DNA of 64,000 bases from Nitrospirota bacterium (GCA_013151555.1 JAADIA010000079.1:1699-65698), one strand, 5' to 3'; counted from the first letter of the stretch, positions 31,303-47,408 are shown. A program made the numbers and translations. Notes: generated by a model from the letters alone, not told the origin.

Positions 31303-31389
31303 GCTTTGTAATTGGAAGAAAGCGGGTTGCCCCGCAACCTTTAATTAAAACTTTAAGCGTTTTAATTATGCGGCCCTTTGGGGGGATTA
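31303..31389 (+). other. Conserved ~90-nt element, copy 1 (candidate structured RNA / dispersed repeat)
   Basis: Aligns along its length with 47316-47408 including a compensatory hairpin (gcggg-ttgc-cccgc versus caggg-tgggaaagctccc-ccctg); strand assumed. Confidence 0.4.
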
Positions 31390-31443
31390 TTTATCAGGAT
31401 GCAAATAATCCGGCGTGAAAAAGCGAAAATCTGAAAAAAGGAT

Positions 31444-31478
31444 GAGCACTTAAGTTTTCTTAAGTGCTCTTCTTTTTA
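31444..31478 (+). terminator. Rho-independent terminator (gagcacttaag-tttt-cttaagtgctc + TTCTTTTT)
   Basis: Perfect 11-bp stem, 4-nt loop, U-tract; the only canonical intrinsic terminator seen in the window. Confidence 0.65.
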
Positions 31479-31526
31479 GGCTGTCGCGAAATATATTTCA
31501 GCCTGTTCCAGAGAAGGGAGTTGTTT

Positions 31527-33365
31527 TTGGTAAAATTTGCCGGGCAAAAGAGAACGGCAGTGACCTTGCTCCTGGCTATCGCCTTTACTGTCCCTTTAGC
31601 TGTCTACAGAGGAACCTCTAACCAGGTTTTGCTGAAGATTTCCCTGACCCAGCTTTTTCTTCTTCTGGGCTTTATTGTCTGGTCCGGCCGGGTGATCATA
31701 AAAAGAAAAGATTTAATTCTGCGAAGAAGTCCTTTAGACGGGCCCCTGCTCCTCTTTTTTTCTTTATCTCTTCTCTCCCTGTTCAATTCCCGCTACCGCT
31801 GGGCGGGAGGACCGGAAATCTATCGTCTCATTACTTACCTTCTGCTTTACGGAGTTAGCGTAAATATTCTGTGGGATAGACGGAATTTGAGCCGGCTCGT
31901 CTTCATCTGGTTGTTATCAACGGGTCTTGTCTCCCTCATTGGTCTCTATGAACATTTTTTTAAGGGCATGTCTCCTCCCCGTTCCACTTTTGGAAATGCT
32001 AATTTCTTTGCTGCTTACTTAGTTCTTCTCTTCCCTTTAACTCTGACTCTCTTCATCAGCAGTATCTTTAGTGGTTCCCGGCTCTCATTTAATAAAGAGG
32101 GGAGGCCGGAGGGTTTGAGGAGGAATTGGTTAAGAATCTCCTTTCTGGCGACCCTGTTACTGGTGATGACTCTTTCTCTTTTCTTGGCTTCTTCCCGCGG
32201 GGCCTGGTTAGGATTAAGCATTGGCCTGGTCTTCCTGGGTTGGCTCTTTTCCTGCCTCGGGACCGGCCGGCGCCGGTTAGCTACCCGGGTTATTCCTATT
32301 TTCCTGCTCCTTCTTCTTATCTTAACAGCTTTCTTTCTTCCCCGTCTCTTAGAAAAGAAATTCGTCCGGGAAGAATTAGAGAAAGGAACCCTGGGCATTC
32401 GGGTGCTTATCTGGGAGGGGACGGCAAAGATGATTGCTGCCCATCCTTTGCAAGGTTCCGGGATAGGAAGTTTTCAGGCGGCCTATCCTCGCTACCGGCT
32501 TCCCGAATATTTTGCTAATCCTCATGCCGTGGACTCTACCGCCCATGCTCATAACGAGTTCCTGGAAATAGCTGCGGAAACGGGAATTTTGGGTCTGCTT
32601 GCTTTTCTCTGGGTTCTAAGCGTTTTCTTTATAAAAGGAATAGATATAGTTAAAAGGGAAGAGGATAGATACAAACAGATTGTGGTTATGGGACTTATCT
32701 CCGGGGCGGCCGGCCTTTTGGTGACAAATTTAGTGGGAGTTAATCTTCGTTTTCCTTCCTCGGCTATCTTTCTCTGGTTGACTATGGGGATAACCATGAG
32801 CCAAATTCCCCTTACGGACCCTTATGGCCCCAGGCGGGTTGCCGGTTGGATTATTAAAACATCTCTTGTCTTCAGGGGAGCTATCTTCGGGTTGGTTCTT
32901 TTGCTGGTGGGGTTGGTTGGCTGGCAGGTGGTGGCTAAACCTTTCCTGGCAGATATGTATTTCCAGAAGGGAATTAATTACCGGAAAGCGGGAGATTGGG
33001 AAAAAGCTATCTCCGAGTACCAGAAGGCGGTTGAACTTGTCCCTTCCTTTATTCGGGTCTATTATCGCCAGGGATTTGCTTATGCTGTTATCGGTGATAT
33101 AGATAAAGCCATCTCTGCTTATAAGAAGGTGATAGACCTGGCTCCCGACTTCGCTCGTGTTCAGGCTAATATTGCTTTTCTCTATAAAGAGAAAGGGGAA
33201 CGGGATAAAGCCATCCGGGCTTATCAACGGGCTCTGGAGCTCAACCCGCGGGATCAGAAGAGTATTTATTATCTGAAGGAGATCTATGGTAATACCGGCC
33301 CGGACTCATTTTCTGGTGTAGAAATCAACCAGGATACGACCGTTAAGCCCGGGAAACCCTTTTGA
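31527..33365 (+). CDS. O-antigen ligase-like (Wzy_C) polytopic membrane protein with C-terminal TPR repeats
   Basis: About 10 predicted TM helices then TPR repeats (YRKAGDWEKAISEYQKAVEL...). The track start (GTG 31464) sits inside the terminator hairpin, so TTG 31527 after AAGGGAG is preferred. Confidence 0.55.
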   Translation: MVKFAGQKRTAVTLLLAIAFTVPLAVYRGTSNQVLLKISLTQLFLLLGFIVWSGRVIIKRKDLILRRSPLDGPLLLFFSLSLLSLFNSRYRWAGGPEIYRLITYLLLYGVSVNILWDRRNLSRLVFIWLLSTGLVSLIGLYEHFFKGMSPPRSTFGNANFFAAYLVLLFPLTLTLFISSIFSGSRLSFNKEGRPEGLRRNWLRISFLATLLLVMTLSLFLASSRGAWLGLSIGLVFLGWLFSCLGTGRRRLATRVIPIFLLLLLILTAFFLPRLLEKKFVREELEKGTLGIRVLIWEGTAKMIAAHPLQGSGIGSFQAAYPRYRLPEYFANPHAVDSTAHAHNEFLEIAAETGILGLLAFLWVLSVFFIKGIDIVKREEDRYKQIVVMGLISGAAGLLVTNLVGVNLRFPSSAIFLWLTMGITMSQIPLTDPYGPRRVAGWIIKTSLVFRGAIFGLVLLLVGLVGWQVVAKPFLADMYFQKGINYRKAGDWEKAISEYQKAVELVPSFIRVYYRQGFAYAVIGDIDKAISAYKKVIDLAPDFARVQANIAFLYKEKGERDKAIRAYQRALELNPRDQKSIYYLKEIYGNTGPDSFSGVEINQDTTVKPGKPF

Positions 33366-34763
33366 GTTTTCCGGAAGATATTTCTCTTTCAGCCAGGCTT
33401 GAGCGGTTCCCGAGGGACGGGAGACGGGGCTGTAGTCCCGGATGAGCCAGATCCTGGCGTAGTTAGTGGTCTCCAGGGTGGAGATAGCCCGGGGAGAGGT
33501 ATTCCCGGGGACTCCGGTCCGGTCCAGGTTTCCCGAATAGTAATAGTCGAAGGCAAACCCTAAGTAGGGTGGGTCAAACAAAATCAAGTCTTTACTCCCG
33601 GCATTATCTTCCACATATTTGGCTGTTCCTCTCCAGTCTTCCTTGAGGAAATCTTTTGTGTAATAGAGATGGAGCGAGAATAAATTCAGGAGAATAAACA
33701 TTGTCAGGAGGGCTCCGCTCACTTTCCGGCTTTTTAATTTAATTAATCCTCCGGAGAGCAGTAAGTAGTAGGCCGGGGAGGAGAAGATAAGATATTTGGA
33801 CTGAAAGGTATGAATCCTCAAGGGGAAGAAAAAAACTATTAACAGGGGGAAGAGGAGCCAGAAAAGCAAGAGGAAAGATGCCTCTTTGTGACGATATGTT
33901 ATCCACCCGTAGATAGCCAGAGCAAGAAAGATGAGCAAGGTTAAGGAAGTCAGCTGGTTGGAGAAAGCAAACCGGGGGTAGCCGAAAGTGAAGTCCAGGA
34001 AGAAAAGGCGGGTGCTGAGAAGAGCTGTCCAGGGGGAAAAGTTTGGGGCGGCCGGGATGGATTGGGTGAGGGCAATCCTTTGCATGAGAACCGGAATCCA
34101 GGGAGAGAAAGCAAGGAGAATAACTAACTGGGAGATGATGAACACTCTCAGAGAGGAACGGTATCTTTTCAGATAGAGAAAGAAGAAAATATTTTCTGCC
34201 AGGAGGATGAAGAAACTATAAAAGAAGGTATACAGGCTGAGAGCGGTGAAGAGAATGAAGCCCAGCCAGAGGGACTTTTTTTCTTCCCGGAGGCTGCGAT
34301 AGAAAAAATACAGGGAGAGGATGATGAGCAGGGTAATTAAAGTTTGCAACCTGGCTTCTTGAGCATAGAAGACTTGATAGGAAGAAATAGCCATGAGGAA
34401 GGAAGCCAGTAAACCTGTCTTCTCTCCGAAGAAGAGGCGGCCGGTCTGATAAATAAGGAGAATAGTCAAAATTCCCAGAAGGGCGGAAAGGCTCCTGGTT
34501 CGGGTTTCCGTGATGACCTGCGGAGTGAAACTCCGGGGATAACTAACCTTCTTTCCTCCTCGAATCCAGAGGTAGAGAAGGGTATTGTAAAGAGGCGGAT
34601 GGGCATCATTCTCAATAATTTCTTTTATCATGGGGAGGAACTGTTTTTGAGCGCGATAGAGGCTGGCTGCTTCGTCCAGCCAGAGGCTTTTCTGACCGAT
34701 CTGGTAGAACCTGAGGAATGTTCCCAGGATAAGGATAAGAATAATCGGGATGAATTTTTTCAT
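33306..34763 (-). CDS. GT39/GT83-family glycosyltransferase (ArnT / PMT-like, undecaprenyl-phosphate-sugar dependent)
   Basis: 485 aa polytopic membrane protein; N-terminal LRFYQIGQKSLWLDEA motif typical of ArnT/PMT family. Confidence 0.6.
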   Translation of the reverse strand: MKKFIPIILILILGTFLRFYQIGQKSLWLDEAASLYRAQKQFLPMIKEIIENDAHPPLYNTLLYLWIRGGKKVSYPRSFTPQVITETRTRSLSALLGILTILLIYQTGRLFFGEKTGLLASFLMAISSYQVFYAQEARLQTLITLLIILSLYFFYRSLREEKKSLWLGFILFTALSLYTFFYSFFILLAENIFFFLYLKRYRSSLRVFIISQLVILLAFSPWIPVLMQRIALTQSIPAAPNFSPWTALLSTRLFFLDFTFGYPRFAFSNQLTSLTLLIFLALAIYGWITYRHKEASFLLLFWLLFPLLIVFFFPLRIHTFQSKYLIFSSPAYYLLLSGGLIKLKSRKVSGALLTMFILLNLFSLHLYYTKDFLKEDWRGTAKYVEDNAGSKDLILFDPPYLGFAFDYYYSGNLDRTGVPGNTSPRAISTLETTNYARIWLIRDYSPVSRPSGTAQAWLKEKYLPENSKGFPGLNGRILVDFYTRK

Positions 34764-34820
34764 AGCATAGGAAAATATAAACCGCTAAACTTTTTTTGAC
34801 CGGATGTGCGGGGTATCCTG

Positions 34821-36152
34821 TCACACATTTTTTTGAATCAACTTATGAATATCTCCAGGCTCAATTATCTTTAGGCATATATTGTCTTTACAGGCCGAGT
34901 CTCTGTTGTTCAGGGCAGATAAACAGGGGGAGCAAGGTAATTCCGAGCAGATTATCCATTTATCTTTTCCCAGAGGACCAAAAACTTTTGGAGTTTCCGG
35001 TCCGAAAATAACAAATTTTTTTATTGAAGCAAGGGAAGCCAGGTGGGCCAGACCGCAATCGTTACAGATTAAAGCATCCGCGAGGTTGAAAAGGGACAAG
35101 AGTTCAGGTAAACTCGTTTGTCCCACTAAGTTCAAGCATCTTCTCTTACGAATACCGGCACAAAGCAATTCAGCTTTTTTATGTCCGCTTTTGGTTCCTA
35201 CCAGGATTATCCGGTTGTTGGGATCTTCCAGGAGTCGTTTAGATAAAGTGATAAAATTCTCTAAAGGCCATTCCCGTAAAGGCAAGGTTCCTTCTCCGGG
35301 GTTGAGCAGAAAAAGTTTGTTTTCTTTGACAATCCCGAATTCTTTCAATTTGCCTTCTATCTGTTTTGCAACTTCAGATGCTACCTGAGCTTTAGGGAGG
35401 GTGATGTCTTTATCCTTGATTTTTTTACTCATCTCCGGACTGTTTTTTTTCTCCTGCTTAACAGTTTGCCATAAAGACAAATAACTTTTGCTTATGTGGA
35501 GCAAAGGGTTATATTGAATGCGATGAGTCAAAAAGTTTCCGCGATACAAACCTTCAAAAGTGTAGTTGTAAAACCCTGTTTTTTTATCGGCCCGGATGAG
35601 AAAGGTGAGGATAGCGGTAAAACGTGAAAAAAGTTCCAAATCAAAAATAATATCTACCCGTTCTTTCGCCATTTTTCTCACTACCCGGAACGTATCGGAT
35701 ACGAATACCCCTACAGAGTCTTCCCGTATGGTGAGGATGTTATCGGCTTCGATAATATTACCGAAAAGTGCGAAAATGTCTCTGTTCTTTTCAAAGGTAA
35801 CAAAAAATAGTTTGACCCCGGGGCATTCTTCCTGCGCGCGTTTTAAGAGCGGATAGGCTAAAACAAGCGCCCCTAATTCGGATAGCTTTATAAAGAGTAT
35901 TTTCTTTGGGGTACCTTTTCTCCCGGTCTTTTTAAGGCCGAAAATCTTCAAGGAGGCATTCACGCAACTGAGCAGAAAACAAAGGGGTTTCCCCAACCAG
36001 TAGTCTATATATCTCATCAGGTTAACAGTCATGGAGTTCCAGTACCTTGCATTTCTCAGAGATGCGCTCTTTCCGGTTCTATCAGGGTAACCATTATCAG
36101 CAATTAGTAACCCCAGGGGGAACTCGAGGGAAAAAATCTTCTTCCCCGGCAT
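34821..36152 (-). CDS. GT9-family glycosyltransferase (ADP-heptose:LPS heptosyltransferase-like) with N-terminal extension
   Basis: KILFIKLSELGALVLAYPLL...VKLFFVT and C-terminal ...GLAHLASL...FGPE blocks typical of RfaF/RfaC-type GT9. Confidence 0.65.
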   Translation of the reverse strand: MPGKKIFSLEFPLGLLIADNGYPDRTGKSASLRNARYWNSMTVNLMRYIDYWLGKPLCFLLSCVNASLKIFGLKKTGRKGTPKKILFIKLSELGALVLAYPLLKRAQEECPGVKLFFVTFEKNRDIFALFGNIIEADNILTIREDSVGVFVSDTFRVVRKMAKERVDIIFDLELFSRFTAILTFLIRADKKTGFYNYTFEGLYRGNFLTHRIQYNPLLHISKSYLSLWQTVKQEKKNSPEMSKKIKDKDITLPKAQVASEVAKQIEGKLKEFGIVKENKLFLLNPGEGTLPLREWPLENFITLSKRLLEDPNNRIILVGTKSGHKKAELLCAGIRKRRCLNLVGQTSLPELLSLFNLADALICNDCGLAHLASLASIKKFVIFGPETPKVFGPLGKDKWIICSELPCSPCLSALNNRDSACKDNICLKIIEPGDIHKLIQKNV

Positions 36153-36366
36153 TTTTTTAGATTATCCTCTTCAATAGGCGGGCAGGATAACCACTACTTT
36201 TGCTAAAATATTTACTTTAACCTACCATATAGAGGGGGGAAAATCAAGAAAAATGTTGAACAGAAAAATGTTGACAGTATCTTTGGGCTATGATAGGTTT
36301 ATTGTGGCGGCTGTCCGCTTGGGGCAGACGAAATAAGGTAGTAACAGTTAAATATTTATGATTAAG

Positions 36367-36438
36367 GCGACGTAGCCAAGTGGCTAAGGCAGCGGTCTGC
36401 AAAACCGCAATTCGTGAGTTCGAATCTCACCGTCGCCT
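36367..36438 (+). tRNA. tRNA-Cys (GCA)
   Basis: Cloverleaf readable: acceptor ggcgacg/cgtcgcc, anticodon loop ctGCAaa, T-arm gttcgaatc. Confidence 0.85.
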
Positions 36439-36442
36439 CTAT

Positions 36443-36532
36443 GCCGGGGTGGCGGAACAGGCAGACGCGACGGACTTAAAATCCGTTGGAGGTTTCCCCT
36501 TCGTGCCGGTTCGACTCCGGCCCTCGGCACCA
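36443..36532 (+). tRNA. tRNA-Leu (TAA) with long variable arm, encoded CCA
   Basis: Acceptor gccgggg/cctcggc, anticodon loop ctTAAaa, long extra arm, T-arm ggttcgactcc, 3' ACCA. Confidence 0.8.
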
Positions 36533-36544
36533 CAAACTCTATAT

Positions 36545-36576
36545 TTTGGGTTTGGTATTTATTGGGATTTGGGTTT
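36545..36576. repeat. TTGGTA-TTGGGATTT family arm between tRNA-Leu and tRNA-Val
   Basis: tttgggtttggtatttattgggatttgggttt; same family as 24584-24648. Confidence 0.55.
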
Positions 36577-36584
36577 TCCTTGTG

Positions 36585-36658
36585 GGGCGGTTAGCTCAGC
36601 TGGTTAGAGTGCCACGTTGACATCGTGGAAGTCACTGGTTCAAGTCCAGTACCGCCCA
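36585..36658 (+). tRNA. tRNA-Val (GAC)
   Basis: Acceptor gggcggt/accgccc, D-loop agctggttag, anticodon loop ttGACat, T-loop ggttcaagtcc. Confidence 0.8.
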
Positions 36659-36664
36659 TTATTT

Positions 36665-36753
36665 GACAGAAAACAGAGGACAGATATCAGAAGACAGATG
36701 GATAAAAACAGATGTTTAATATAAGGTTGTTTCTGTTATCTGTCTTCTGTTTA
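36665..36753. repeat. GACAGA-family inverted tandem-unit element between tRNA-Val and thrS
   Basis: gacagaaaacagaggacagatatcagaagacagatggataaaaacagatg at 36665-36714; inverted gtttctgttatctgtcttctgtttag at 36728-36753. Confidence 0.65.
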
Positions 36754-36763
36754 GGGAAAAAGC

Positions 36764-38530
36764 ATGATGAATTCTAAAGATAAGCATAAGGCTGATTCAA
36801 AAGATAACCTGGAAACTCTGAGGCATAGTGCCGCTCATATCCTGGCCCAGGCAGTGAAGGAGCTTTATCCGGAAACCAAGTTGGGTATTGGCCCTGCCAT
36901 TGCCGATGGTTTCTATTATGATTTTGAGAGAAAAACTCCTTTTACTCTTGAAGATTTGGCAAAGATTGAAGAGAGGATGCAGAGAATTGTGAAGGCTGCC
37001 CTTCCTTTTCTGAAAAGTGTTCTTTCTAAGCAAGATGCTCTGGAAATATTTTCTGAATTGGAGGAGCCATATAAGTTAGAACTTCTGGAAGATCTGGAGA
37101 ATGATGAAGTAACTATCTACCGGCAGGGAAATTTTACTGACCTCTGTAGGGGGCCGCATCTGGCGAATACCGGAGAGCTGAAATCTTTCAAGCTCCTTAG
37201 CATAGCCGGAGCCTACTGGCGGGGTAGCGAAAAGAATCCTATGCTCCAGCGAATATACGGGACGGCCTTTCCCGGGGAAGTGGAGTTAGCAGAATATCTG
37301 CAGAATCTTGAAGAAGCTAAGAAGAGGGACCATCGCAGGTTAGGGAAAGAATTGGATCTCTTTAGCCTGGAGGAGGATGTTGGTCCCGGCTTGGTCCTCT
37401 GGCACCCTCGCGGGGCGATGTTGCGGAAGGTCATCGAGGACTTCTGGCGGGATGAGCATTTGAAACGGGGGTACCAACTTGTCTATACTCCTCATATCGC
37501 CGGAGAGAATTTGTGGAAGGTAAGTGGACATCTTGACTATTTCAGGGAAATGATGTATCCTTCTATGAGAATGGACGAGCGGAACTATCTTCTCAAACCG
37601 ATGAATTGTCCCTTTCATATAAGAATTTATAAGCAGAAAGTTCGTAGTTATCGAGACCTCCCCATTCGTTATGCTGAGTTAGGAACAGTCTACCGCTATG
37701 AACGTTCCGGGGTCCTGCATGGGTTGTTGAGGGTGCGAGGTTTTACTCAAGATGATGCCCATATTTTTTGTACTCCGGAGCAATTGTCCAAAGAAATTCT
37801 GAGCATTATCGATTTGATCCAGTTCATGTTGGAGGCTTTTGGTTATAAGGAGTTTCAGGTCGAGTTGAGTGTTCGCCATCCGGATAGAAGCGGTGATTAT
37901 CTGGGAGATGATGAAGGCTGGGCTCGGGCGGAGGCAGCTTTAGTTGAATCTCTGGACAAGAGGAATCTCTCCTATACGGTAGGGGAAGGAGAAGCAACCT
38001 TCTATGGTCCTAAGATCGATATCAAGCTGGTTGATGCTCTGGGAAGAGGTTGGCAAGGTCCAACAATCCAGGTAGATTTCAACCTTCCGGGACGTCTTAA
38101 TATTACTTATGTGGGAGATGATGGAAAGAAACATCCGGTGATGATGCTCCATCGAACCGTACTGGGAACGATGGAACGGTTTGTCGGAGGTTTGATAGAG
38201 CATTATGTCGGAGCATTTCCTTCCTGGCTGGCTCCTCTTCAGATCAGGGTGGTGACGATCAACCAGGGGCAGGAAGCTTATGCAAAGAAGGTTCTGCAGG
38301 AACTGCAGGAAAAAGGATTGCGGGCTGATCTGGATGCGGGAAAGGAAACGATTAGTTATAAGATTGGGAAGGCTGAACGGGAAAAAATTCCTTATATTTT
38401 AGTAGCGGGAGATAGGGAAGTAGAAGCGGGCACTGTTTCGGTAAGAAAGAGAAAGGATCGTCATCAAAAAGTAATGAAGGTTGAGGAGTTTATTGACAGG
38501 ATTCAGGAAGAAATAAAAAACCGTGAATAG
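36764..38530 (+). CDS. thrS: Threonyl-tRNA synthetase (lacking the N-terminal TGS domain)
   Basis: 588 aa; begins at the editing-domain motif RHSAAHILAQA; class II core and anticodon-binding domain present. Confidence 0.9.
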   Translation: MMNSKDKHKADSKDNLETLRHSAAHILAQAVKELYPETKLGIGPAIADGFYYDFERKTPFTLEDLAKIEERMQRIVKAALPFLKSVLSKQDALEIFSELEEPYKLELLEDLENDEVTIYRQGNFTDLCRGPHLANTGELKSFKLLSIAGAYWRGSEKNPMLQRIYGTAFPGEVELAEYLQNLEEAKKRDHRRLGKELDLFSLEEDVGPGLVLWHPRGAMLRKVIEDFWRDEHLKRGYQLVYTPHIAGENLWKVSGHLDYFREMMYPSMRMDERNYLLKPMNCPFHIRIYKQKVRSYRDLPIRYAELGTVYRYERSGVLHGLLRVRGFTQDDAHIFCTPEQLSKEILSIIDLIQFMLEAFGYKEFQVELSVRHPDRSGDYLGDDEGWARAEAALVESLDKRNLSYTVGEGEATFYGPKIDIKLVDALGRGWQGPTIQVDFNLPGRLNITYVGDDGKKHPVMMLHRTVLGTMERFVGGLIEHYVGAFPSWLAPLQIRVVTINQGQEAYAKKVLQELQEKGLRADLDAGKETISYKIGKAEREKIPYILVAGDREVEAGTVSVRKRKDRHQKVMKVEEFIDRIQEEIKNRE

Positions 38531-38588
38531 GATTAAGAATTAAGAATTAAGAAGAAAAACTTAATACTTACAACTTACAACTTAATTC
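38531..38588. repeat. Inverted tandem-unit element (unit GAATTAAG) immediately 3' of thrS
   Basis: gattaagaattaagaattaagaag then cttaatacttacaacttacaacttaattc. Confidence 0.55.
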
Positions 38589-38631
38589 TGTTTTTTAGAG
38601 GAGGTGACGACTAATAGCTAAAGAAATTAGG

Positions 38632-39126
38632 ATGAATGCCCGGATTAAAGCAGTGGAAGTAAGAGTTATTGAACATGATGGTAGTCAGTCAGGCATAATG
38701 CCGGTGAAGGAAGCTCTAAAGTTGGCTGAAGAGAAAGGCCTGGATTTAGTTGAGGTTGCTCCTCAGGCAAGTCCACCGGTATGCCGTGTTATGGATTACG
38801 GCAAGTATAGGTATGAACAGCGCAAGCGGACTAAGGAAGCCAAGAAAAAGCAGAAGATTACGGAAATCAAAGAGATCAAGTTGCGTCCGAAGATTGAAGA
38901 GCATGACTATCAGGTAAAGCTGCGGCAGGCGCAAAGGTTCTTGAAAAGCGGAGATAAGACAAAAGTTACTATCGTGTTTAGGGGCAGGGAAATGGCTCAT
39001 CTGGATATCGGGAAGAAGCTTTTAGACCGATTCGCCGGCGACATGACCGATTTGGGGGTAGTGGAAGTGGCTGCCAGAATGGAAGGTAGGAGTATGGGGA
39101 TGATCCTTGCTCCTCATAAGCAATAG
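38632..39126 (+). CDS. infC: Translation initiation factor IF-3
   Basis: IKAVEVRVIEHDGSQSGIM...PPVCRVMDYGKY canonical IF3; an in-frame AUA at 38614 with ideal SD spacing may be the true (non-canonical) start. Confidence 0.85.
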   Translation: MNARIKAVEVRVIEHDGSQSGIMPVKEALKLAEEKGLDLVEVAPQASPPVCRVMDYGKYRYEQRKRTKEAKKKQKITEIKEIKLRPKIEEHDYQVKLRQAQRFLKSGDKTKVTIVFRGREMAHLDIGKKLLDRFAGDMTDLGVVEVAARMEGRSMGMILAPHKQ

Positions 39127-39187: not shown

Positions 39188-39201
39188 TAAGGAGAACGAA
39201 A

Positions 39202-39399: not shown

Positions 39400-39406
39400 A
39401 ACAGAT

Positions 39407-39577: not shown

Positions 39578-39602
39578 TGTCTTTTGAGAAGGAGAATAAA
39601 AA

Positions 39603-39974
39603 ATGCCTCGAGTTAAGAGTAGTGTTACCTCCAGAAGACGGCACAAAAAATTTTTAAAGCAAGCCAAAGGTTACTGGGGAGGGAGAAGTAGGCTTTATCG
39701 GACAGCGCGGGAAGCAGTAGAGAGAAGTTGGAGCTATGCTTTTCGAGACAGAAAGGTAAAGAAGAGAGATTTTAGAGGTTTATGGATTTCCCGTATCAAT
39801 GCCGCGGCCCGTATCCATAACCTTAGTTATAGCAAGTTCATATATGGTCTTAATAAAGCTAATGTCGGCTTGAACAGGAAAGTACTGGCCGACCTGGCGG
39901 TGAGGGAACCCACTACTTTCAAAGAACTGGCCAAGGTAGCTAAAGATGGTTTAAAGTTAAAAACTGAAGGTTGA
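39603..39974 (+). CDS. rplT: 50S ribosomal protein L20
   Basis: [35 protein letters not shown] canonical L20; last residues (GLKLKTEG) and the stop are encoded by a repeat arm. Confidence 0.9.
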
Positions 39975-40000
39975 AATCAAATACTTTAAACCTTAAACTG
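39948..40000. repeat. GGTTGAAAGTTAAGG-family inverted element overlapping the rplT 3' end
   Basis: ggtttaaagttaaaaactgaaggttgaaatc at 39948-39978; inverted ctttaaaccttaaactg at 39984-40000. Confidence 0.55.
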
Positions 40001-40008
40001 AGGTAATC

Positions 40009-40656
40009 ATGTATGTGATCATCGTTGGTTGTGGAAGAGTGGGCTCAGTCCTGGCAGACCTTCTTTCTCAAGAAGGACACGATGTCGTAGTTATCGATTC
40101 CCAGGAGGTAAAGTTTAAGAATCTTAATCCCCGGTTTAGCGGCGTAACCATTCTGGGAGATGGGGCCGATATAAATACTCTTCGGGAAGCTAAGGTTGAA
40201 GGGGCTGATGTTTTAGTAGCAGCCACTGGCGATGACAACTCAAATCTTATGTCTGCTCAGATAGCTAAAAAGATTTTTAATGTCTCCCGGGCCCTGGTGA
40301 GAGTGAAAGACCCCAAAAAGATGGATGTTTATCAGGAGTATGACTTAGAGCCGGTATCCGCTACTACCCTGGCGGCCTATTATCTGGCAGAAATGGTGCG
40401 GGTTCCCCGGGAGATCAAGATCTTGACCAGTTTGGGTAATATCAAAATAGTGCAGTTCAAACTGCCTAACTGGAAAGCCGGCCAGAAACTTGCCAAGATG
40501 GTCGATGCGGGAGTATTCTCTCCCTGTTTAATCAAGACGGAAAATAAGGTAGCTTTGACTGAATTGGAGACGAAGTTCCTGCCGGGGGCGGAAGTGGTAG
40601 GAGCAATCGCTCTTAGTAAGATGAAGCATCTCCAACGAGTCGCCCGGGAGGAGTAG
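40009..40656 (+). CDS. TrkA/KtrA-family K+ transporter NAD-binding regulatory subunit
   Basis: Rossmann IIVGCGRVGSVLADLL; RCK_N then RCK_C. Confidence 0.7.
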   Translation: MYVIIVGCGRVGSVLADLLSQEGHDVVVIDSQEVKFKNLNPRFSGVTILGDGADINTLREAKVEGADVLVAATGDDNSNLMSAQIAKKIFNVSRALVRVKDPKKMDVYQEYDLEPVSATTLAAYYLAEMVRVPREIKILTSLGNIKIVQFKLPNWKAGQKLAKMVDAGVFSPCLIKTENKVALTELETKFLPGAEVVGAIALSKMKHLQRVAREE

Positions 40657-40839
40657 AAATATTCAAGAATGCTTTGTCTGCTGAGTAGGTGTTTCGGTTA
40701 TTCGAAAATTGTCCTTCGACTTTGCTCAGGGTGGTGAGCTTTTCGAAACCATTTCGAATTTCGTGCTTCGAGCTTCGGGATTCGGATTTTTTTAATAGTA
40801 TCTAAAGTTCAAGGATAATGAATATTAGCAGGAGATAAG

Positions 40840-41493
40840 ATGAAGGTTATTATTATTGGAGGGGGCAAGATCGGCGATTTCCTGTCGAAAGCTCTTCTTT
40901 ACAATAAACATCAAGTAACTATAATCGAGGAAGAGTCGGAAAGATGCAATTGCCTCGTCAAAAGTCTTAACACGGTAGTCATTAATGGAGATGGCACAAG
41001 TTTACAGACTCTAACTGATGCTGAGGCGCAGAATGCCGATGTCCTGGTGGCTCTTACCGGACGGGACCAGGATAATTTAGTTGCCTGTCAGTTAGCTCAT
41101 CATCACTTTAAGGTTCCCCGGACGATTGCCCGGGTGGGTAACCCCCAGAACAGAGAACTATTCCAGAAATTGGGGGGGGTAAATACTACTGTCTGCACTA
41201 CCGAAATAATTTCTTCTTTAGTAGAGGAAAAGGTCTCCTTGAAAGATATGATTACTCTTCTTACCTTTGAGGAAGGGGAGGTCGTTATTGTAGAGACGGA
41301 AGTGGGAGAAGATTCTCCGGCCCGGGGTCAGAAAATTATGGAACTGAATCTTCCCCAGGAATGTGTTATCATTTCTGTTTTCCGGGAGAGCCATATGATT
41401 TTCCCTCACGGTGAGACCATCCTGAAAATGAAAGATAAGGTATTAGCCTTAACTACAGCTCAGAAAAAATCCGTTCTCCAAGAAATGATTTAA
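40840..41493 (+). CDS. TrkA/KtrA-family K+ transporter regulatory subunit (second copy)
   Basis: IIIGGGKIGDFLSKAL Rossmann motif; RCK_N plus RCK_C. Confidence 0.7.
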   Translation: MKVIIIGGGKIGDFLSKALLYNKHQVTIIEEESERCNCLVKSLNTVVINGDGTSLQTLTDAEAQNADVLVALTGRDQDNLVACQLAHHHFKVPRTIARVGNPQNRELFQKLGGVNTTVCTTEIISSLVEEKVSLKDMITLLTFEEGEVVIVETEVGEDSPARGQKIMELNLPQECVIISVFRESHMIFPHGETILKMKDKVLALTTAQKKSVLQEMI

Positions 41494-41621
41494 AAAATTT
41501 CCTTCTCTCTCCTCTAAAGCAGGCAGATACCGATATTCGGATAAATTTAGGATTAATGGAATGATTCGGAGAATTAATTTGCGGTTTAAAATTTCCAATC
41601 TTCAATTTACTGTTCAGGTTT

Positions 41622-43127
41622 ATGACCGTAGGGAGCGGACTTGAAATGTCTCCCCTCCGCCAGCGATATTTCATCATAATTAGTTATGTGGGACTCCTGA
41701 TCTTAGGATTAGGAGGGATTCTCCTTATTCCTTTAGTCAGCCTTTTCTTTTCTCCGTCGGACATAAAGTACCTTAATAGCTTTCTCATCCCTTCCTTAGC
41801 TGCTATCGTCGGGGGATTTTTTCTCTGGAGGGGGTTCCGTTCGCGAGTAGAGGTTCCTCCTTTAACTGCTCCCGATGCAGCTCTCATCGTTACCTTTGTC
41901 TGGATAGCAGCCGTTATCCTGGGTGCGCTTCCCTTTATCCTCTCGCAGATATTAAGCCCTCTGGATGCTATCTTCGAGTCTATGAGCGGTTGGACAACTA
42001 CGGGTTTGACCATGGTTAATCCTGATAAGATTCCTTCCCTCTTCCTTTTCTGGAGGAGCCTCATGCAGTTTGTGGGAGGAGCGGGTCTAGCCGTAATTAT
42101 GCTCTCGGCCATCGTTGGCTCTTTAGGTCCCGGGGTCTATGAAGCAGAAGCCCGAAGTGACCATTTAGTTCCCCATGTGATGCATACGGCAAGAATGATC
42201 ATTAAAATCTATTTAGCTTATTATATCGTTGGAGTTGGCCTCTATTTTCTGGCGGGGATGAACTTTTTTGACTCTCTCAATCAGGCTATGTCCGGGTTAG
42301 CTACCGGCGGTTTTTCCACTCACTCGGAAAACATTGCTTACTGGAACAATCTCTCTATAGAGGCAGTAAGTCTGCTTCTCATGCTCTTGGGAACGACAAA
42401 TTTTGCTACTCACCATGTTCTCCTTTCCAGCCGGGGAAGGAAGGGTTTCAGAGATACGGAACTCAAACTAATGAGTTGGTTAATCATCGTAGTTACTCCC
42501 CTGATTGCCTTCAGTCTGTTCAAAACCATATTAGGAAACTTAGGAGATAGCTTCCGGAAAGGGTTGTTCCAGGTAGTCTCCGCCCTTTCGGGGACCGGTT
42601 ATTCAACGACTACTCTCAACAACTGGAGCGAATTTTCTCTTTTTCTCCTGATTATCTTGATGATTGTTGAGGGAGGAACCGGTTCTACTGCGGGGGGAAT
42701 AAAACTTTACCGGGCCGCTATTATTATTAAATCCATCTGGTGGTGGATCAAGAAACAGTTCTATCCTCCCTCTGTGGTTATACAAAGAGCTATCTGGAGA
42801 CGGGGGGAAAGACTGGAAGTTCAAGATAAGCATATTCAAGCGGTGACGGGTTTCATCGGACTTTATCTTCTTACCTATCTTGTAGGAGTGCTCATTTTTT
42901 TAGGGAGCGGTTTCTCCCTCCGTCAGTCCCTATTCGAGTTTGCTTCAGCTATAGGGACGGTAGGATTATCGTTGGGGATTACCCGCCCGGATATGCCTGT
43001 TACCGCCAAGGTGGCGGAGATCTTCGGGATGTGGTTGGGAAGACTGGAATTTATAGCTATCTTCCATGCTTTTATCCGAATTGGACGAGACCTGAAAGTA
43101 GGAAGAAATAGAAGAGGAAAAGAATGA
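41622..43127 (+). CDS. TrkH/KtrB-family K+ transporter membrane subunit
   Basis: 501 aa polytopic protein with repeated selectivity-filter-like GTTGLT / GLATGG / GGTGST / GLS motifs. Confidence 0.7.
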   Translation: MTVGSGLEMSPLRQRYFIIISYVGLLILGLGGILLIPLVSLFFSPSDIKYLNSFLIPSLAAIVGGFFLWRGFRSRVEVPPLTAPDAALIVTFVWIAAVILGALPFILSQILSPLDAIFESMSGWTTTGLTMVNPDKIPSLFLFWRSLMQFVGGAGLAVIMLSAIVGSLGPGVYEAEARSDHLVPHVMHTARMIIKIYLAYYIVGVGLYFLAGMNFFDSLNQAMSGLATGGFSTHSENIAYWNNLSIEAVSLLLMLLGTTNFATHHVLLSSRGRKGFRDTELKLMSWLIIVVTPLIAFSLFKTILGNLGDSFRKGLFQVVSALSGTGYSTTTLNNWSEFSLFLLIILMIVEGGTGSTAGGIKLYRAAIIIKSIWWWIKKQFYPPSVVIQRAIWRRGERLEVQDKHIQAVTGFIGLYLLTYLVGVLIFLGSGFSLRQSLFEFASAIGTVGLSLGITRPDMPVTAKVAEIFGMWLGRLEFIAIFHAFIRIGRDLKVGRNRRGKE

Positions 43128-44713
43128 ACGGTCCTAAGGAAGAACTCCGGACGGTAGTGGAACGGCTTAATCCTCAAACGAGATGCTTGCTGACGAGGAT
43201 GAAAGCCGGCGATGCTTATCTCCCTTCGCAGTTGCAAGAGCTGCTGGGGCAGGGAACTAAAGCCAGGGCTGTGGGGTCTGTGGGATGGTTGATTGCTAAT
43301 GGTTTAGCTGAGGAGACGGGTGAGGAGGACTCTAAAAGATATGTGTCGTTAGCCGATAAAGGACAGGCTTTTCAGGAAAAAGGAATTCCTGAAGGACGGA
43401 TAGTTAAGCTTTTGAAAGAAAAAGATAAGTTGACTATTCAAGAACTTGGAGAGAAGTTAGCTTTACCTAAAGAGGAATTGAATCCTATTCTTGGAACCAT
43501 GAAGAAGGAAAAAGTTATCTCATTTGAAAGCGGGGGGCGGGTGGCTTTGGGAGAAGAGGTAGCTATTAGGAAAGCAACCGAAAGGTACGGTAAGGTTAAT
43601 AATCTTTTAGACCGGGTGAAATCTGAAACAAGAGTGGATTTGCATGATATGCCTGAAGATGAAGAAGAAATTATTAAAGAGATGAGTCGGAAACGAGGTA
43701 AGGGTAAAGCTATCTTCCGCATAGTTCGAGCAGTAGAGATGAGATATAAACTAACCCCGAGAGGGAAAGAAGCTCAAGCCATATGTGGAGATATTAGGGA
43801 AGGCGAGGAGATAGGTTCTCTTACTCCCGAGATTCTGGAGAAAGGATTATGGCGGAACCGAACGTTCCGGAAATATGATATAGGCACCCGACCTCCCAAA
43901 TGGACTTACGGAAAGAAACATCCCTATGGACTCTTTCTGGATTTCGTGAGGAGAAAATTGGTAGCTATGGGTTTCGAAGAGATGAGAGGGCGGATGGTGG
44001 AGACTGAGTTTTGGAACAACGATGCCCTTTTTATGCCCCAGGACCATCCGGCCCGGGAAATACACGACGTCTATTTTGTTAAAGAACCTAAATACTCGCA
44101 AGAATTGCCTGAAGACTTAGTTGAGAAAGTAGCCAAGACCCATGAAACCGGCTGGAAGACCGGTTCTACCGGTTGGGGATATAAATTTGATAAAGAGAGA
44201 ACATCCCGTTTCGTTCTCAGGAGCCAGGGTACAGCTAACTCTGTTCGGATGTTGGCATCTCAACCCAAAATTCCGGGCAAATATTTTGCTATTGCCCGCT
44301 GCTTCCGTTACGATCAGGTAGATGCCACTCATGCTTCGGACTTTAATCAGATAGAGGGGATAGTTCTTTCCCGGGAGATGAATTTCCGGCACCTCTTGGG
44401 ACTTCTGAAACTTTTCGCTCTGGAGATAGCCGGCTCCAGTGAGGTTAGGTTTGTCCCTTCCTATTTCCCTTTTACGGAACCTTCCGTGGAGATCCAGTTC
44501 AAGCACAAAGAGCTTGGCTGGATGGAATTAGGAGGAGCAGGAATCTTCCGGAAAGAGGTTACTATTCCTTTAGGGATAGAAGTTCCGGTTATTGCCTGGG
44601 GGCTGGGTCTGGATAGGATGGCTATGGTAGCTCTCTCCCTTGACGACATCAGGGACCTCTTTACCTCTGACCTGGGGAAAGTGCAGGAGATGAAATTTAA
44701 GCAAAATATATAA
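43124..44713 (+). CDS. pheS: Phenylalanyl-tRNA synthetase alpha subunit, archaeal/eukaryotic type (long N-terminal winged-helix extension)
   Basis: 529 aa, against about 340 for bacterial-type PheS; class II motifs 2 and 3 in the C-terminal half (FRYDQVDATHASDFNQIEG, GWGLGLDRMAMV). Confidence 0.8.
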   Translation: MNGPKEELRTVVERLNPQTRCLLTRMKAGDAYLPSQLQELLGQGTKARAVGSVGWLIANGLAEETGEEDSKRYVSLADKGQAFQEKGIPEGRIVKLLKEKDKLTIQELGEKLALPKEELNPILGTMKKEKVISFESGGRVALGEEVAIRKATERYGKVNNLLDRVKSETRVDLHDMPEDEEEIIKEMSRKRGKGKAIFRIVRAVEMRYKLTPRGKEAQAICGDIREGEEIGSLTPEILEKGLWRNRTFRKYDIGTRPPKWTYGKKHPYGLFLDFVRRKLVAMGFEEMRGRMVETEFWNNDALFMPQDHPAREIHDVYFVKEPKYSQELPEDLVEKVAKTHETGWKTGSTGWGYKFDKERTSRFVLRSQGTANSVRMLASQPKIPGKYFAIARCFRYDQVDATHASDFNQIEGIVLSREMNFRHLLGLLKLFALEIAGSSEVRFVPSYFPFTEPSVEIQFKHKELGWMELGGAGIFRKEVTIPLGIEVPVIAWGLGLDRMAMVALSLDDIRDLFTSDLGKVQEMKFKQNI

Positions 44714-44738
44714 GTTTGCTACCTCCTTCGGAAGTTAA

Positions 44739-44824
44739 GACTATAGACTATAGACCATAGACTAAACGAGGGGAAAAGGGATGGTGAAAAGTCTAAAGTC
44801 TGATGTCTATGGTCTATTGTCTGA
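44739..44824. repeat. Inverted tandem-unit element (unit CTATAGA) between pheS and pheT
   Basis: gactatagactatagaccatagactaaa at 44739-44766; inverted agtctaaagtctgatgtctatggtctattgtctga at 44790-44824. Confidence 0.6.
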
Positions 44825-44849
44825 ATTGAGTTCTTGAAAAGAGGTAAGA

Positions 44850-46508
44850 ATGCCAACTATTGAAATAAGAAAAACGGATTTTGATAAGTTCCTGAAGCCC
44901 ATAATAGAAGAACAGGGAAGAGGACGGGAAGAGACTCTTTCTCGCATTAAGGGAGAGATAAAAGGCGAGGATAACGATTGCTATAAGATAGAAATAGCCG
45001 ATACCAACAGGCCGGATCTCTTCACTGTTGAAGGTATTGCCAGAGAACTTCTGGGGATTTTCAAAGAGGAAAAGTTTAAGGATGATTTTCTGAATGAAAG
45101 TCCGAAATATAAGATAGAGGTCCTGGAATCCGTGCGGGAGGTAAGACCTTTTGTAGGAGCTCTGGTTGTCAGGAACTTAACTGTTGATGAAGATACTCTG
45201 CATTCTTTAATAAGCATCCAGGAAAAACTGGGTGAGACCCTGGGGAAAAGGAGAAAGAGGGTTGCCATTGGTGTTTATGAAGCCGGTTCCATCGAATTCC
45301 CGGTACGATACGGAGCTTTTGATCCTCAATCTTATAAGTTTGTTCCCCTGGAGTTCTCCGAAGAGATGACTTTGGATGAGGTTTTGAGGAAACATCCTAA
45401 AGGTATTGAATATGGGCATTTGTTGAAAGGTTGCCAAGGTTATCCTCTTCTCCTCGATGCTAACCGGAGAGTTCTTTCCCTCCCTCCCATCGTCAATAGC
45501 CGGGAAATGGGAGAGGTAAGGCCGGGAGCGAACCATCTCTTCGTGGAAGCAACAGGGACAGACCAGAAGGCGGTTATTCTGGCCTTAAATATTATCTCTT
45601 CCGCTCTCTCTCTCCGGGGAGGGACCATAGAAAGATGTGAGACGGTTTATCCCTACGCGACTCCCCTGGGAGAAAATCAGGTGACTCCCAGGCAAATGAA
45701 CAAGGCGTTGAGGGTAGATATGGAGGAGCTGAAACAGCTACTGGGTATCGATATTAGTCGGCAAGAGGCAGCTGATTGTCTAAGGCGATTAGGATATGAA
45801 ATCCAGGGGCAAGGAGAGAAATTCCAGGCCCTCGCCCCCTATTACCGTAGCGATGGTATGCATGAACACGATATAATAGAAGATATAGCTATAGTGAAAG
45901 GTTATGAGAACTTCTCTCCTCTACCTTTAAGCGATTTCACTATAGGAGGGTTATCCAGGGAACAGGAGATAGTGGATAAAGTAAGGGAGATTCTCGTCGG
46001 GATGGGATTTCAGGAGATAATATCTAACGCCTTGGTGAATCGGAGGGAACTCTCTCAGCGGATGAGATGTGAGACCGAGGCCATCGAAGTAGATAACGTG
46101 ATGACTGAGACCTACTCTGTATTGAGAAGTTGGCTTATTCCCTGCCTGCTCAAAGTGGAGAGGGAAAGTTCTCAGGTGGAATATCCTCATAAGGTCTTTG
46201 AAGTGGGTGAGGTGGTTGTCAAGGAAAATGGGCCCAGGGAAGAGATAAGACTGGCCGTTCTCATCTCGAGCGGAGAATTCGGTTTCACCGATATCCACCG
46301 GATATTGGAAAGCCTGATGGAGGAATTATCCTATCCTTATCATCTGAAAGAAGCTTGTCATAGTTCATTTATAGAAGGCCGTTTCGGTGAAATAGAGAGT
46401 GGACATAAGTCTGTGGGAATCATTGGCGAAGTACATCCGGAGGTCTTATCTAACTGGGCTGTCAAAATGCCTGTTTCCGCATTTGAGCTTAGGATTTACC
46501 CCTATTAA
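44850..46508 (+). CDS. pheT: Phenylalanyl-tRNA synthetase beta subunit, archaeal/eukaryotic type (short form)
   Basis: 552 aa, against about 800 for bacterial PheT; B3/B4 and B5 regions recognisable; no tRNA-binding N-terminal OB domain. Confidence 0.75.
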   Translation: MPTIEIRKTDFDKFLKPIIEEQGRGREETLSRIKGEIKGEDNDCYKIEIADTNRPDLFTVEGIARELLGIFKEEKFKDDFLNESPKYKIEVLESVREVRPFVGALVVRNLTVDEDTLHSLISIQEKLGETLGKRRKRVAIGVYEAGSIEFPVRYGAFDPQSYKFVPLEFSEEMTLDEVLRKHPKGIEYGHLLKGCQGYPLLLDANRRVLSLPPIVNSREMGEVRPGANHLFVEATGTDQKAVILALNIISSALSLRGGTIERCETVYPYATPLGENQVTPRQMNKALRVDMEELKQLLGIDISRQEAADCLRRLGYEIQGQGEKFQALAPYYRSDGMHEHDIIEDIAIVKGYENFSPLPLSDFTIGGLSREQEIVDKVREILVGMGFQEIISNALVNRRELSQRMRCETEAIEVDNVMTETYSVLRSWLIPCLLKVERESSQVEYPHKVFEVGEVVVKENGPREEIRLAVLISSGEFGFTDIHRILESLMEELSYPYHLKEACHSSFIEGRFGEIESGHKSVGIIGEVHPEVLSNWAVKMPVSAFELRIYPY

Positions 46509-46588
46509 AAGGCGGGATTGCCCAGATTAGGACAAAGATTTCGCTCTGGTGATTGGCTATTAGTTTAATGCTAAGGAAAATCAAAAAC

Positions 46589-46739
46589 GGACAGGATTAA
46601 CAGGATGTACAGGATAATTTTCTTAAAGAATTTTAGTTGGGGAAACTTTACAAAACTTTTTGAATTTTGTAAAATCAGCTTTTATCCTTTGATTTAATTA
46701 AAAGAATAAAAATCCGGTAAATCCAGTAAATCCTGTCAA
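46589..46739. repeat. ACAGGAT-family inverted tandem-unit element 3' of pheT
   Basis: ggacaggattaacaggatgtacaggat at 46589-46615; inverted atccggtaaatccagtaaatcctgtcaa at 46712-46739; spacer contains tttacaaaa/ttttgtaaa palindrome. Confidence 0.7.
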
Positions 46740-46783
46740 TTTTAGAGTTGCCGCTGTAGACGGCCTAAGTTTGGAGAGAAGTC

Positions 46784-46960
46784 ATGCCGGAAGATAGCTT
46801 GAGTATTCTGGAAGAACGGGTGGGGAAGCTTGTTGAACTTACCATCAAATTGAAGGAAGAAAAGGAGAGATGGGAGAAGGAAAAAGCTGTCCTCAAATTG
46901 AAAGTAGAAGAGATATCAAACCAGGTGGAAAAGGTTATCGGGGAAGAAAATGAAAGATAA
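46784..46960 (+). CDS. Small coiled-coil protein (ZapB-like), not in the supplied ORF track
   Basis: 58-aa ORF MPEDSLSILEERVGKLVELTIKLKEEKERWEKEKAVLKLKVEEISNQVEKVIGEENER overlapping the zapA start by 11 nt. Confidence 0.4.
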   Translation: MPEDSLSILEERVGKLVELTIKLKEEKERWEKEKAVLKLKVEEISNQVEKVIGEENER

Positions 46961-47243
46961 ACTTACCCAGGTAACGATATTCGGAACGGAATATTCTCTC
47001 AAGGGGGACGAAGACCGGGAATATATGGAAGAATTGTCTAATTATGTAAACAAGAGGATGAAAGAAGTTTCTGAACATTCCGCTTTAGTATCCACAGCTA
47101 AAGTAGCAGTGCTGGCCGCTCTTCGTATTGCCGATGAATTATATCAATTGAGGAAAGAGAAAGATGGAATCAGAACAGATGGTTCTGCGGAAAAGAGGAT
47201 CAGGAAACTGATAGAGATGATTGACCACGAAGTTGAAGGTTGA
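46950..47243 (+). CDS. zapA: Cell division protein ZapA
   Basis: 97 aa; VTIFGTEYSLKGDEDREYMEELSNYVNKRM matches the ZapA fold signature. Confidence 0.7.
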   Translation: MKDKLTQVTIFGTEYSLKGDEDREYMEELSNYVNKRMKEVSEHSALVSTAKVAVLAALRIADELYQLRKEKDGIRTDGSAEKRIRKLIEMIDHEVEG

Positions 47244-47249
47244 TTTTTC

Positions 47250-47279
47250 TTGACTCTGCTCTCTGGACTGGGGTAATAT
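47250..47279 (+). promoter_or_regulatory. Possible sigma70 promoter (TTGACT - 18 nt - TAATAT) upstream of conserved element copy 2 / ffh
   Basis: Hexamers read directly; spacer slightly long. Confidence 0.3.
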
Positions 47280-47315
47280 ATAAGTGGCCTGTCTAAGTCA
47301 GCTTTACTCAGGCCT

Positions 47316-47408
47316 TGCTTGAAATTGGAACAGGGTGGGAAAGCTCCCCCCTGCAATTTTTAATTAAGATGCTAAGTGTTTTAGTTATATGGATTTTTGG
47401 GTGGATTA
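47316..47408 (+). other. Conserved ~90-nt element, copy 2 (candidate structured RNA / dispersed repeat)
   Basis: Aligns with 31303-31389 (gcttg.aattggaa...tttaattaa...taag.gtttta.ttat..gg...tttggg.ggatta) with a compensatory hairpin. Confidence 0.4.

Follow-up and report, generated by a model that had tools for sequence, protein, structure and literature searches.

A small hairpin-rich repeat at the pilin-like and ffh loci of an NPL-UPA2-related bacterium, probably one of the miniature inverted-repeat transposable elements

A 64-kb stretch of DNA from a Nitrospirota bacterium (GCA_013151555.1, JAADIA010000079.1:1699-65698; 44.8% G+C), referred to here as the window, carries two copies of a small AT-rich repeat. 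Copy 1 adjoins the 3' end of a DUF1559/N_methyl pilin-like gene. Copy 2 is located between the ZapA gene and ffh, in the 5' untranslated region (UTR) of ffh. According to Ffh, the closest named relatives of the host belong to candidate division NPL-UPA2 (79-85% Ffh identity). [quoted passage not shown] Both loci comprise the following features.

30703-31284, + strand: DUF1559/N_methyl pilin-like gene, with its TAG stop codon at 31282-31284
31281-31284, + strand: ATAG, left flank of copy 1, its last three bases being the pilin gene TAG stop
31285-31413, + strand: copy 1 of the element, 129 nt (covariance-model match 31280-31410, 116 bits)
31444-31478, + strand: intrinsic terminator of the pilin transcript, 11-bp stem GAGCACTTAAG and T tract; host sequence, outside the element
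47250-47279, + strand: ffh promoter TTGACT-N18-TAATAT; host sequence, in a block conserved in the relatives L001, L002, L004, L006 and L025
47294-47297, + strand: TAAG, left flanking repeat of copy 2, at the loop position of a 5' hairpin conserved in the ffh leader
47298-47405, + strand: copy 2 of the element, 108 nt, downstream of the promoter (covariance-model match 47293-47426, 93 bits)
47406-47409, + strand: TTAG, right flanking repeat of copy 2; next comes host GCGAGTTAAATTT, the counterpart of GCGAGTCGAATTT in L025

A first-pass annotation of the window had proposed that two related copies exist, and this was confirmed by each of the searches made. The copies, both on the + strand, share 77% column identity in a pairwise alignment, and a 25-nt degenerate core pattern has two exact matches in the window against 0.01 expected. 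A profile made from the two copies recovered just these copies (E 1e-27 and 1e-29), the next-best matches being the palindromic core read backwards. A covariance model run over the 64 kb with filters off likewise gave just two matches. No third copy was thus found in the window by the profile or by the unfiltered covariance model. The annotation had placed both sites correctly but had drawn them too short, at 31303-31389 and 47316-47408, and their extents are corrected to those listed above.

The ffh locus was compared in seven relatives (L001, L002/L003, L004/L005, L006, L007, L025 and L026), and profile and covariance-model searches found the element at ffh in none of them. The promoter-like TTGACT/TAATAT reported earlier at this locus does exist and is conserved in relatives, and a block around the ffh start codon that contains the ribosome-binding site (RBS), TTACGAGCGGAGCGAGTATG, is conserved in L002 and L004, where it was read. 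A common hairpin closely follows the transcription start in L025, L004 and L002, e.g., GGCGATTCGCC-TAAG-GCGAGTCGAATTT. The empty sites carry a single 4-mer, which is TAAG in L025, TTAG in L004 and TGAG in L002. When 47298-47409 (the element and one 4-nt repeat) is deleted, the window aligns gap-free with L025 and L004 over the first 73 columns, across a junction that reads ...C-TAAG-GCGAGT..AATTT. Copy 2 is therefore a precise insertion of 108 nt that sits, with TAAG on its left and TTAG on its right, in the loop of the conserved leader hairpin.

The leader hairpin itself shows compensatory changes between the genomes of the relatives, namely CGATTCGCC/GGCGAGTCG, CGACCCGCC/GGTGGATCG and CGACTCG/CGAGTCG (L025 575-600; L004, L002). 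In the window (47286-47314), the insertion has split this hairpin, and a new GGCCTG...CAGGCC pairs the old 5' arm with the mutated 5' end of the element. This new hairpin may have restored a 5'-terminal stem-loop.

At the pilin locus, the first base of copy 1 directly follows the TAG stop codon. Its earlier placement in the 3' region of the pilin gene is thus right in that it adjoins the gene and wrong in setting it inside. The empty counterpart is found in a relative, L035, in which the downstream Wzy_C-TPR protein is 67% identical and the orthologous pilin gene is present (...GLAGLQDGS*). Despite this gene and a nearly identical terminator, the element is absent from the pilin 3' spacer of L035. 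Deletion of 31285-31413 makes the window collinear with L035, and the spacer between pilin stop and terminator measures 159 nt in the window versus 50 nt in L035. When filled and empty sites were aligned, MAFFT misplaced the gap, attracted by a stretch of the element that resembles the 3' end of the pilin gene, and the comparisons therefore rest on alignments from which the element had been deleted. The similarity in question lies 25 nt upstream of the insertion point, where 31256-31276 (CTTGGCGGGATTAAAAGATGG) resembles 31375-31395 of the element (CTTTGGGGGGATTATTTATC), and it is probably due to chance.

The strong terminator announced after copy 1 was also verified. With its 11-bp perfect stem and T tract (31444-31469), it clearly surpasses every other terminator-like site in the 53.5 kb of the window that were scanned (all but 20001-30499). 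Its sequence, GAGCACTTAAG-TTTT-CTTAAGTGCTC with the T tract and an A tract upstream, is potentially bidirectional. It is conserved almost base for base in L035 (663-700), although the neighbouring proteins are only ~67% identical.

The search for more copies, a check recommended by the annotation, revealed six, all at other sites. A scan for the core motif, conducted with one genome per species, found five of them, all in one other genome, the NPL-UPA2 metagenome-assembled genome (MAG) MAG-914 (JAJOKU01), together with three chance matches. Three of these five lie at contig ends. A profile search with the translated element against 5.8 billion predicted proteins gave one open reading frame (ORF) of 52 aa, which had been called on the sixth further copy, carried by a 376-nt metagenome contig (L024). 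In total, eight copies are known from three assemblies at eight different loci, the six outside the window being the following.

L012: at pheS-pheT
L014: downstream of a deoxyhypusine-synthase-like gene, convergent with gpsA
L009: downstream of comM
L013: near acpP
L015: upstream of a 7TM-HD gene
L024: between a pair of small convergent ORFs

The pheS-pheT and comM sites also exist in the window, without the element. The MAG-914 copies are near-identical to one another, which, set against the 77% identity in the window, fits bursts of different age. Other collections gave no further copies. All 13 matches from DNA-pattern scans of JGI metagenomes and IMG/VR were chance matches without a covariance-model score, and the plasmid and phage collections contained no match to the element. 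The Rfam search, also recommended by the annotation, found no family matching the element at either window site or at the five MAG-914 loci. At gathering thresholds, Rfam 15 recognized three tRNAs only in the window. Permissive scans gave weak matches on the terminator only for the copy 1 intergenic region and nothing around copy 2, even at E<=10, and E-value scans of the five MAG-914 loci returned nothing relevant.

Two of these copies are fused with host reading frames. In L012 (395-440), the PheS frame enters the element and gains a 9-residue tail (MKF|SPLYSYLS*), compared with MKF|RQNKE* in a relative. In L024 (202-375, - strand), a hydrophobic ORF of 57 aa ends within the TTAATTAA core of the element. 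The single open frame of the element may make such fusions tolerable.

A full copy is an AT-rich element of ~130-150 bp without any gene, which folds into three consecutive hairpins; all copies together range from 108 to 152 nt. The best-preserved copies start with TTAG|CCCGCTTTATTCAT..., continue with ...GGAACAGGGCGGGCTACCCCGCA..TTTAATTAAAACGCTAAGCGTTTTAATTATGCGGCCCTTCGGGTGGATTAC-TTTAA- and end with GTAATCCAGG|TTAG. In L024, an 18-nt terminal inverted repeat lies at the exact ends and matches at 16 of 18 positions (CTAACCCGGATTATTCAC / GTGAATAATCCAGGCTAG); the terminal repeats of the family are imperfect and have the core CCYGGATTATTCAC. The ends of the MAG-914 copies are homologous to those of L024 but degenerate (8/14 matching). 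Four of the five MAG-914 copies have TTAG as a direct flank on each side; the 4-nt direct flanks of L024 are CTAA/CTAG, and those of copy 2 are TAAG/TTAG. In L024, the TAA stop of the upstream gene forms part of the CTAA at the element border, an arrangement as in copy 1. Copy 1 has degenerate terminal repeats and has lost the flanking duplication, its right flank being CGTG, and copy 2 lacks about the last 19 nt of full-length copies, i.e., the 3' arm of the third hairpin, equivalent to the right terminal repeat. Judging from their 77% identity, the lost duplication of copy 1 and the lost right end of copy 2, both window copies are old and have decayed in part, and they are probably no longer mobile.

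RNAalifold and single-sequence folds agree on the three hairpins, P1, P2 and P3. In P1, the 5' end of the element pairs with GAACAGGGCGGGCTA; in P2, CCGCA/TGCGG closes a 12-bp TTAATTAAAACGC stem; and P3 is formed by GGATTAC/GTAATCC, with the right terminal repeat as its 3' arm. The stems were located in the window as follows.

31283-31328, + strand: P1 of copy 1, AGCCUGCUU (31283-31291) pairing with AAGCGGGUU (31320-31328)
31342-31368, + strand: P2 core of copy 1, TAATTAAAAC / GTTTTAATTA, inverted repeats matching perfectly over 10 bp and the best-conserved part of the family
31384-31411, + strand: P3 of copy 1, GGATTATTT / AAATAATCC, the 3' arm being a remnant of the right terminal inverted repeat (compared with that of L024)
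47331-47353, + strand: hairpin specific to copy 2, CAGGGTGGGA-AAGC-TCCCCCCTG, longer and re-formed through a 6-nt insertion; its individual pairs are not homologous to those of the copy 1 hairpin
47361-47387, + strand: P2 core of copy 2, TAATTAAGATGC / GTGTTTTAGTTA, with four G-U wobbles that pair on the + strand only

Support for the P1 register comes from L024, where a double change turned G-C into U-A. In copy 1, P1 competes with a local hairpin, GCGGG/CCCGC (31322-31335), on which the annotation had based a claim of covariation with CAGGG/CCCTG in copy 2. This claim does not hold as stated, since the two hairpins occupy non-homologous positions and, among the eight copies, the CAGGG of copy 2 aligns with CAGGG that is unpaired elsewhere. 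Genuine double changes are few (the G-C to U-A in P1 and a C-G to U-A in P3), and most stem changes are one-sided G-U wobbles. In an alignment fitted to the model, 94% of the cells are paired versus 35-51% when the partners are slid. The fitted alignment overstates the double changes of P3, since in L012 and L015 a hairpin of another repeat was aligned as P3. Because only about three independent lineages are represented, the covariation statistics carry little weight.

This other repeat, module B, is 63 nt long and forms two hairpins, CCCCGAGAAATCC...GATTCCTAGGGA. It is inserted without target duplication at the site G^GG(Y)GG and, in the DNA available, was seen only within copies of the main element.

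L012, 515-577: module B, inserted at TTCG^GGTGG
L014, 3997-4059, - strand: module B, inserted at ACAG^GGCGGG
L009, at its start: probable module B, at the same ACAG^GGCGGG site as in L014
L015, 100-248: variant of module B, 149 nt with a further nested hairpin, at the L012 site

Module B interrupts P1 or the P2/P3 junction in copies that are otherwise intact and near-identical. Structural integrity is therefore not required at each locus. The nesting also makes the family part of a mosaic of small mobile repeats.

The hallmarks of prokaryotic MITEs are small size, terminal repeats, direct repeats that fade, AT-richness, intergenic location and stable predicted stem-loops (PMC10969869, section 2.1), and the features of the element match this definition. 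At 108-152 nt, it is well below 500 bp and encodes no transposase, its open frame of ~43 codons having no conserved start. The 18-nt terminal repeat of L024 falls within the ~4-30 bp of the class. Flanking direct repeats are present, with two at copy 2 where the empty sites of relatives have a single TAAG or TTAG, and none is left at copy 1. The copies are dispersed and polymorphic for presence, since the sites are empty at ffh (seven relatives), at the pilin gene (one relative) and at pheS-pheT and comM (the window). The insertion is lineage-specific and precise, the copies occupy non-orthologous sites, and they are nested with a second small repeat. Among the three options left open by the annotation, a small RNA (sRNA), a cis-regulatory leader and a MITE, the last is thus supported, and the first two are argued against by the Rfam negatives, the empty orthologous sites, the unrelated neighbours and the interruptions by module B. 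MITE-type repeats are ordinary selfish DNA; only this family appears undescribed.

A DDE transposase encoded elsewhere in the genome would bind the CCYGGATTATTCAC terminal repeats and cut out or copy the element, which would then enter T(T/A)AG-type sites and duplicate 4 bp there, in the manner of the IS5 group. Copies would settle just after genes or in leaders because such target sites include TAA and TAG stops and AT-rich hairpin loops. Host transcripts would then carry them passively: copy 1 ahead of the terminator in the 3' UTR of the pilin mRNA, and copy 2 in the 5' UTR of ffh. Any influence they now have on the expression of pilin or ffh is probably incidental, i.e., RNA structure added to a UTR. 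Candidates for the transposase are an IS5-like enzyme, an IS630-like enzyme or a Y1 enzyme acting on hairpins. IS5 duplicates a YTAR target (PMC5009759), which TTAG, CTAA and CTAG fit and which TAAG (left of copy 2) and ATAG (left of copy 1) do not exactly fit. The flanks are nearly as compatible with a TA duplication within NTAN, of the IS630 type. No gene for a transposase, integrase or RAYT was found by the Pfam scan of 40 of the 59 window ORFs; the other ORFs are for the most part in synteny with housekeeping loci annotated in relatives.

Several observations weigh against assignment to the MITEs. No autonomous parent insertion sequence (IS) with matching ends was found, a pattern scan of viral contigs for the terminal repeats giving chance matches only, and the family is known from just eight copies in three assemblies. 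Clear terminal repeats are carried by one of the eight copies, those of MAG-914 matching at 8/14 and those of the window being decayed. The flank 4-mers are nearly invariant, so that target duplication is not fully separable from fixed element termini beside a preferred target. Pairing in the three diverged copies is kept preferentially on the + strand, with an advantage of 6-8 kcal/mol in stability. The element is 78-87% identical between the window and MAG-914, compared with 72-76% for the comM, pheT and pheS genes. Finally, the copies located between co-directional genes are all co-oriented with transcription (n=3-4). The strand-biased pairing, excess identity and co-orientation hint at a single-strand constraint (RNA or single-stranded DNA) beyond neutral decay. 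Retention of hairpins is equally expected for a palindromic mobile element, and we read the + strand asymmetry and the high identity as selection for transposition competence in an active lineage, or as recent exchange between lineages.

An alternative is a single-strand, hairpin-type mobile element instead of one with terminal inverted repeats and a DDE enzyme, namely a REP/REPIN-RAYT system or an IS200/IS605-derived PATE. A Y1 transposase would then read the hairpins of one strand and insert the element 3' of a TTAG-like 4-mer without duplication, the terminal TTAG being the right end of the element. Such an origin seems unlikely. It would account for an element that is essentially a string of hairpins, for border 4-mers that are alike in all copies, as a fixed target and a fixed right end predict, and for the strand-specific retention of pairing in diverged copies, and the insertion of module B at G^GG(Y)GG in two places without target duplication is typical of the class. 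However, the exact ends of L024 carry terminal inverted repeats (16/18), which are absent from IS200/IS605 elements and PATEs, the window showed no gene for a Y1 transposase or RAYT, and the element is far longer and more complex than a REP doublet. The absence of terminal repeats, the absence of duplication, sub-terminal hairpins and a linked Y1 or RAYT gene, which together define PATEs and REPs, are not the picture given by the main element; module B alone would fit them.

Two readings at the RNA level were also considered. The element may have spread as a MITE and afterwards been retained as a sense-strand RNA module in host mRNAs, e.g., as a 3' or 5' UTR stabiliser or a dock for a protein or RNase, in a lineage almost without classical terminators. 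Such a retention would explain the 78-87% versus 72-76% identity, the pairing on the + strand only in decaying copies and the co-orientation, and we regard it as doubtful. Still less likely is a functional structured RNA module (an sRNA or a cis-acting UTR element serving as stabiliser, as platform for an RNase or protein, or as regulator), spread by transposition and kept by selection on the + strand RNA. Young copies fold well below shuffled controls (z ~-5), equally on both strands. Besides this folding, the high fraction of paired cells, substitutions that are mostly wobble-compatible on the + strand, the + strand advantage of the three diverged copies, an identity between genomes above that of housekeeping genes, and co-orientation with the surrounding transcription units wherever informative would speak for it. 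Every orthologous site examined lacks the element, though, and the neighbouring genes are functionally unrelated. In addition, module B interrupts P1 or the P2/P3 junction, copy 2 has no P3, no conserved internal promoter or terminator and no Rfam match were found, and the pairing alignment, drawn from about three independent lineages, was fitted to the model.

A small protein of ~40 aa (core ...LIKTLSVLIMRPFGW...), such as a membrane peptide or a toxin, is highly improbable and was rejected: one + frame is open in every copy, where the other five contain 1-6 stops, the 63 nt of module B keep the frame open and in register at its two sites, 60 nt apart, and the three core differences between L013 and L015 all fall at third codon positions, but there is no conserved start or Shine-Dalgarno sequence (ATG in L014 and L015 only, TTG in the window copies only), substitutions between copies 1 and 2 are distributed 5:3:6 over the codon positions without third-position excess, the frame is broken by the module B variant of L015, the sole match in 5.8 billion proteins is the 52-aa ORF called on another copy, no protein family exists, and by our estimate an open frame of ~43 codons at 40% GC would occur by chance in about one of six frames ~30% of the time. 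Further candidates were discarded. Since copy 2 comes after zapA, the position of ssrS in E. coli, a 6S RNA was examined, and it has no Rfam match at E<=10; the spacing and consensus of a sigma-54 promoter and of an attC site do not fit, with motifs inspected by eye only; and a conserved cis-regulatory leader of ffh is at odds with the absence of the element in the seven relatives, where the promoter is conserved and, in L002 and L004, the RBS block as well.

Among known MITEs, the element resembles Correia/NEMIS of Neisseria, ERIC/IRU of enterobacteria and QMITE of Coxiella, being short, non-coding, AT-rich and located between genes or in UTRs, with terminal inverted repeats, flanks that fade with age, dispersed copies, stable predicted stem-loops and co-transcription with neighbours (PMC10969869). 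It differs from annotated MITEs in having no sequence similarity to them (the Rfam, plasmid and phage searches being negative), in an uncultured candidate phylum as host, in an apparently low copy number, and in its build of three hairpins, with the right terminal repeat itself half a hairpin. The direct flanks TTAG, CTAA, CTAG and TAAG match or nearly match the YTAR of the IS5 group and its MITE derivatives (PMC5009759). In contrast to that group, no IS5-family transposase was linked to the element. The ends CCYGGATTATTCAC also bear no known resemblance to those of IS5.

The modular nesting, with the element, module B and a third level in L015, recalls the BIMEs of E. coli and the BOX elements of S. 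pneumoniae. Unlike these, the mosaic here arises from discrete 63-nt insertions of module B into intact copies and not from combinatorial boxes, and there is no sequence relation. With REP/REPIN-RAYT and PATEs the family shares the dominance of hairpins, strand-specific pairing and fixed border 4-mers, and module B especially resembles them (two hairpins, no duplication, G^GG). The main element differs from them by its terminal inverted repeats, its length, much greater than that of REP, and the lack of a Y1 transposase nearby. The palindromic elements of Rickettsia (RPE) are likewise palindromic repeats with a readable open frame, comparable to the extension of PheS by 9 codons in L012 and to the small membrane ORF of L024; here, however, all eight copies lie outside conserved gene bodies, none being in frame within a gene.

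Recognition of the element as a probable MITE avoids a false lead, by which the shared 'covarying hairpin' would be catalogued as a candidate sRNA or as a regulator of ffh or the pilin gene. The family would be the first transposable repeat family described from NPL-UPA2, a candidate phylum about which little is known and which has been linked to serpentinising environments (PMC6305446). Two clean pairs of filled and empty sites, together with the covariance model, can serve for repeat masking, for explaining contig breaks in MAGs and for tracking insertions at strain level. If the copies had indeed been exapted as UTR modules, they would represent a modest case of MITE domestication in a genome that seemingly uses unusual intergenic hairpins instead of terminators.

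These hairpins were noticed in the window. At least 14 intergenic regions form long hairpins whose arms consist of 2-5 tandem units of 7-8 nt, with a different unit in each spacer; examples of the units are ACAGGAT, CACAGATTA, AAGGCACA, TAGACTA, AATTGAAG and CACGGAA.

First seven tandem-unit hairpins: 2335-2584, 3779-4116, 12763-12930, 16283-16443, 20140-20418, 24501-24659, 26414-26576
Last seven tandem-unit hairpins: 36660-36763, 38531-38631, 40657-40839, 44714-44849, 46509-46949, 49199-49377, 49666-49782

The orthologous spacers in L001, L002 and L007 have the same hairpin architecture with other units. Classical terminator-like sites are not enriched over shuffles. In this lineage, the tandem-unit hairpins may replace terminators or act as intercistronic stabilisers, and they may be more unusual than the mobile element itself. 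Three tRNA genes are clustered at 36366-36658, and the spacer between the second and third (36541-36576) carries a TTTGGGTTTGGTA..TATTGGGATTT repeat, the same that forms the hairpin of 24501-24659 (at 24574-24654).

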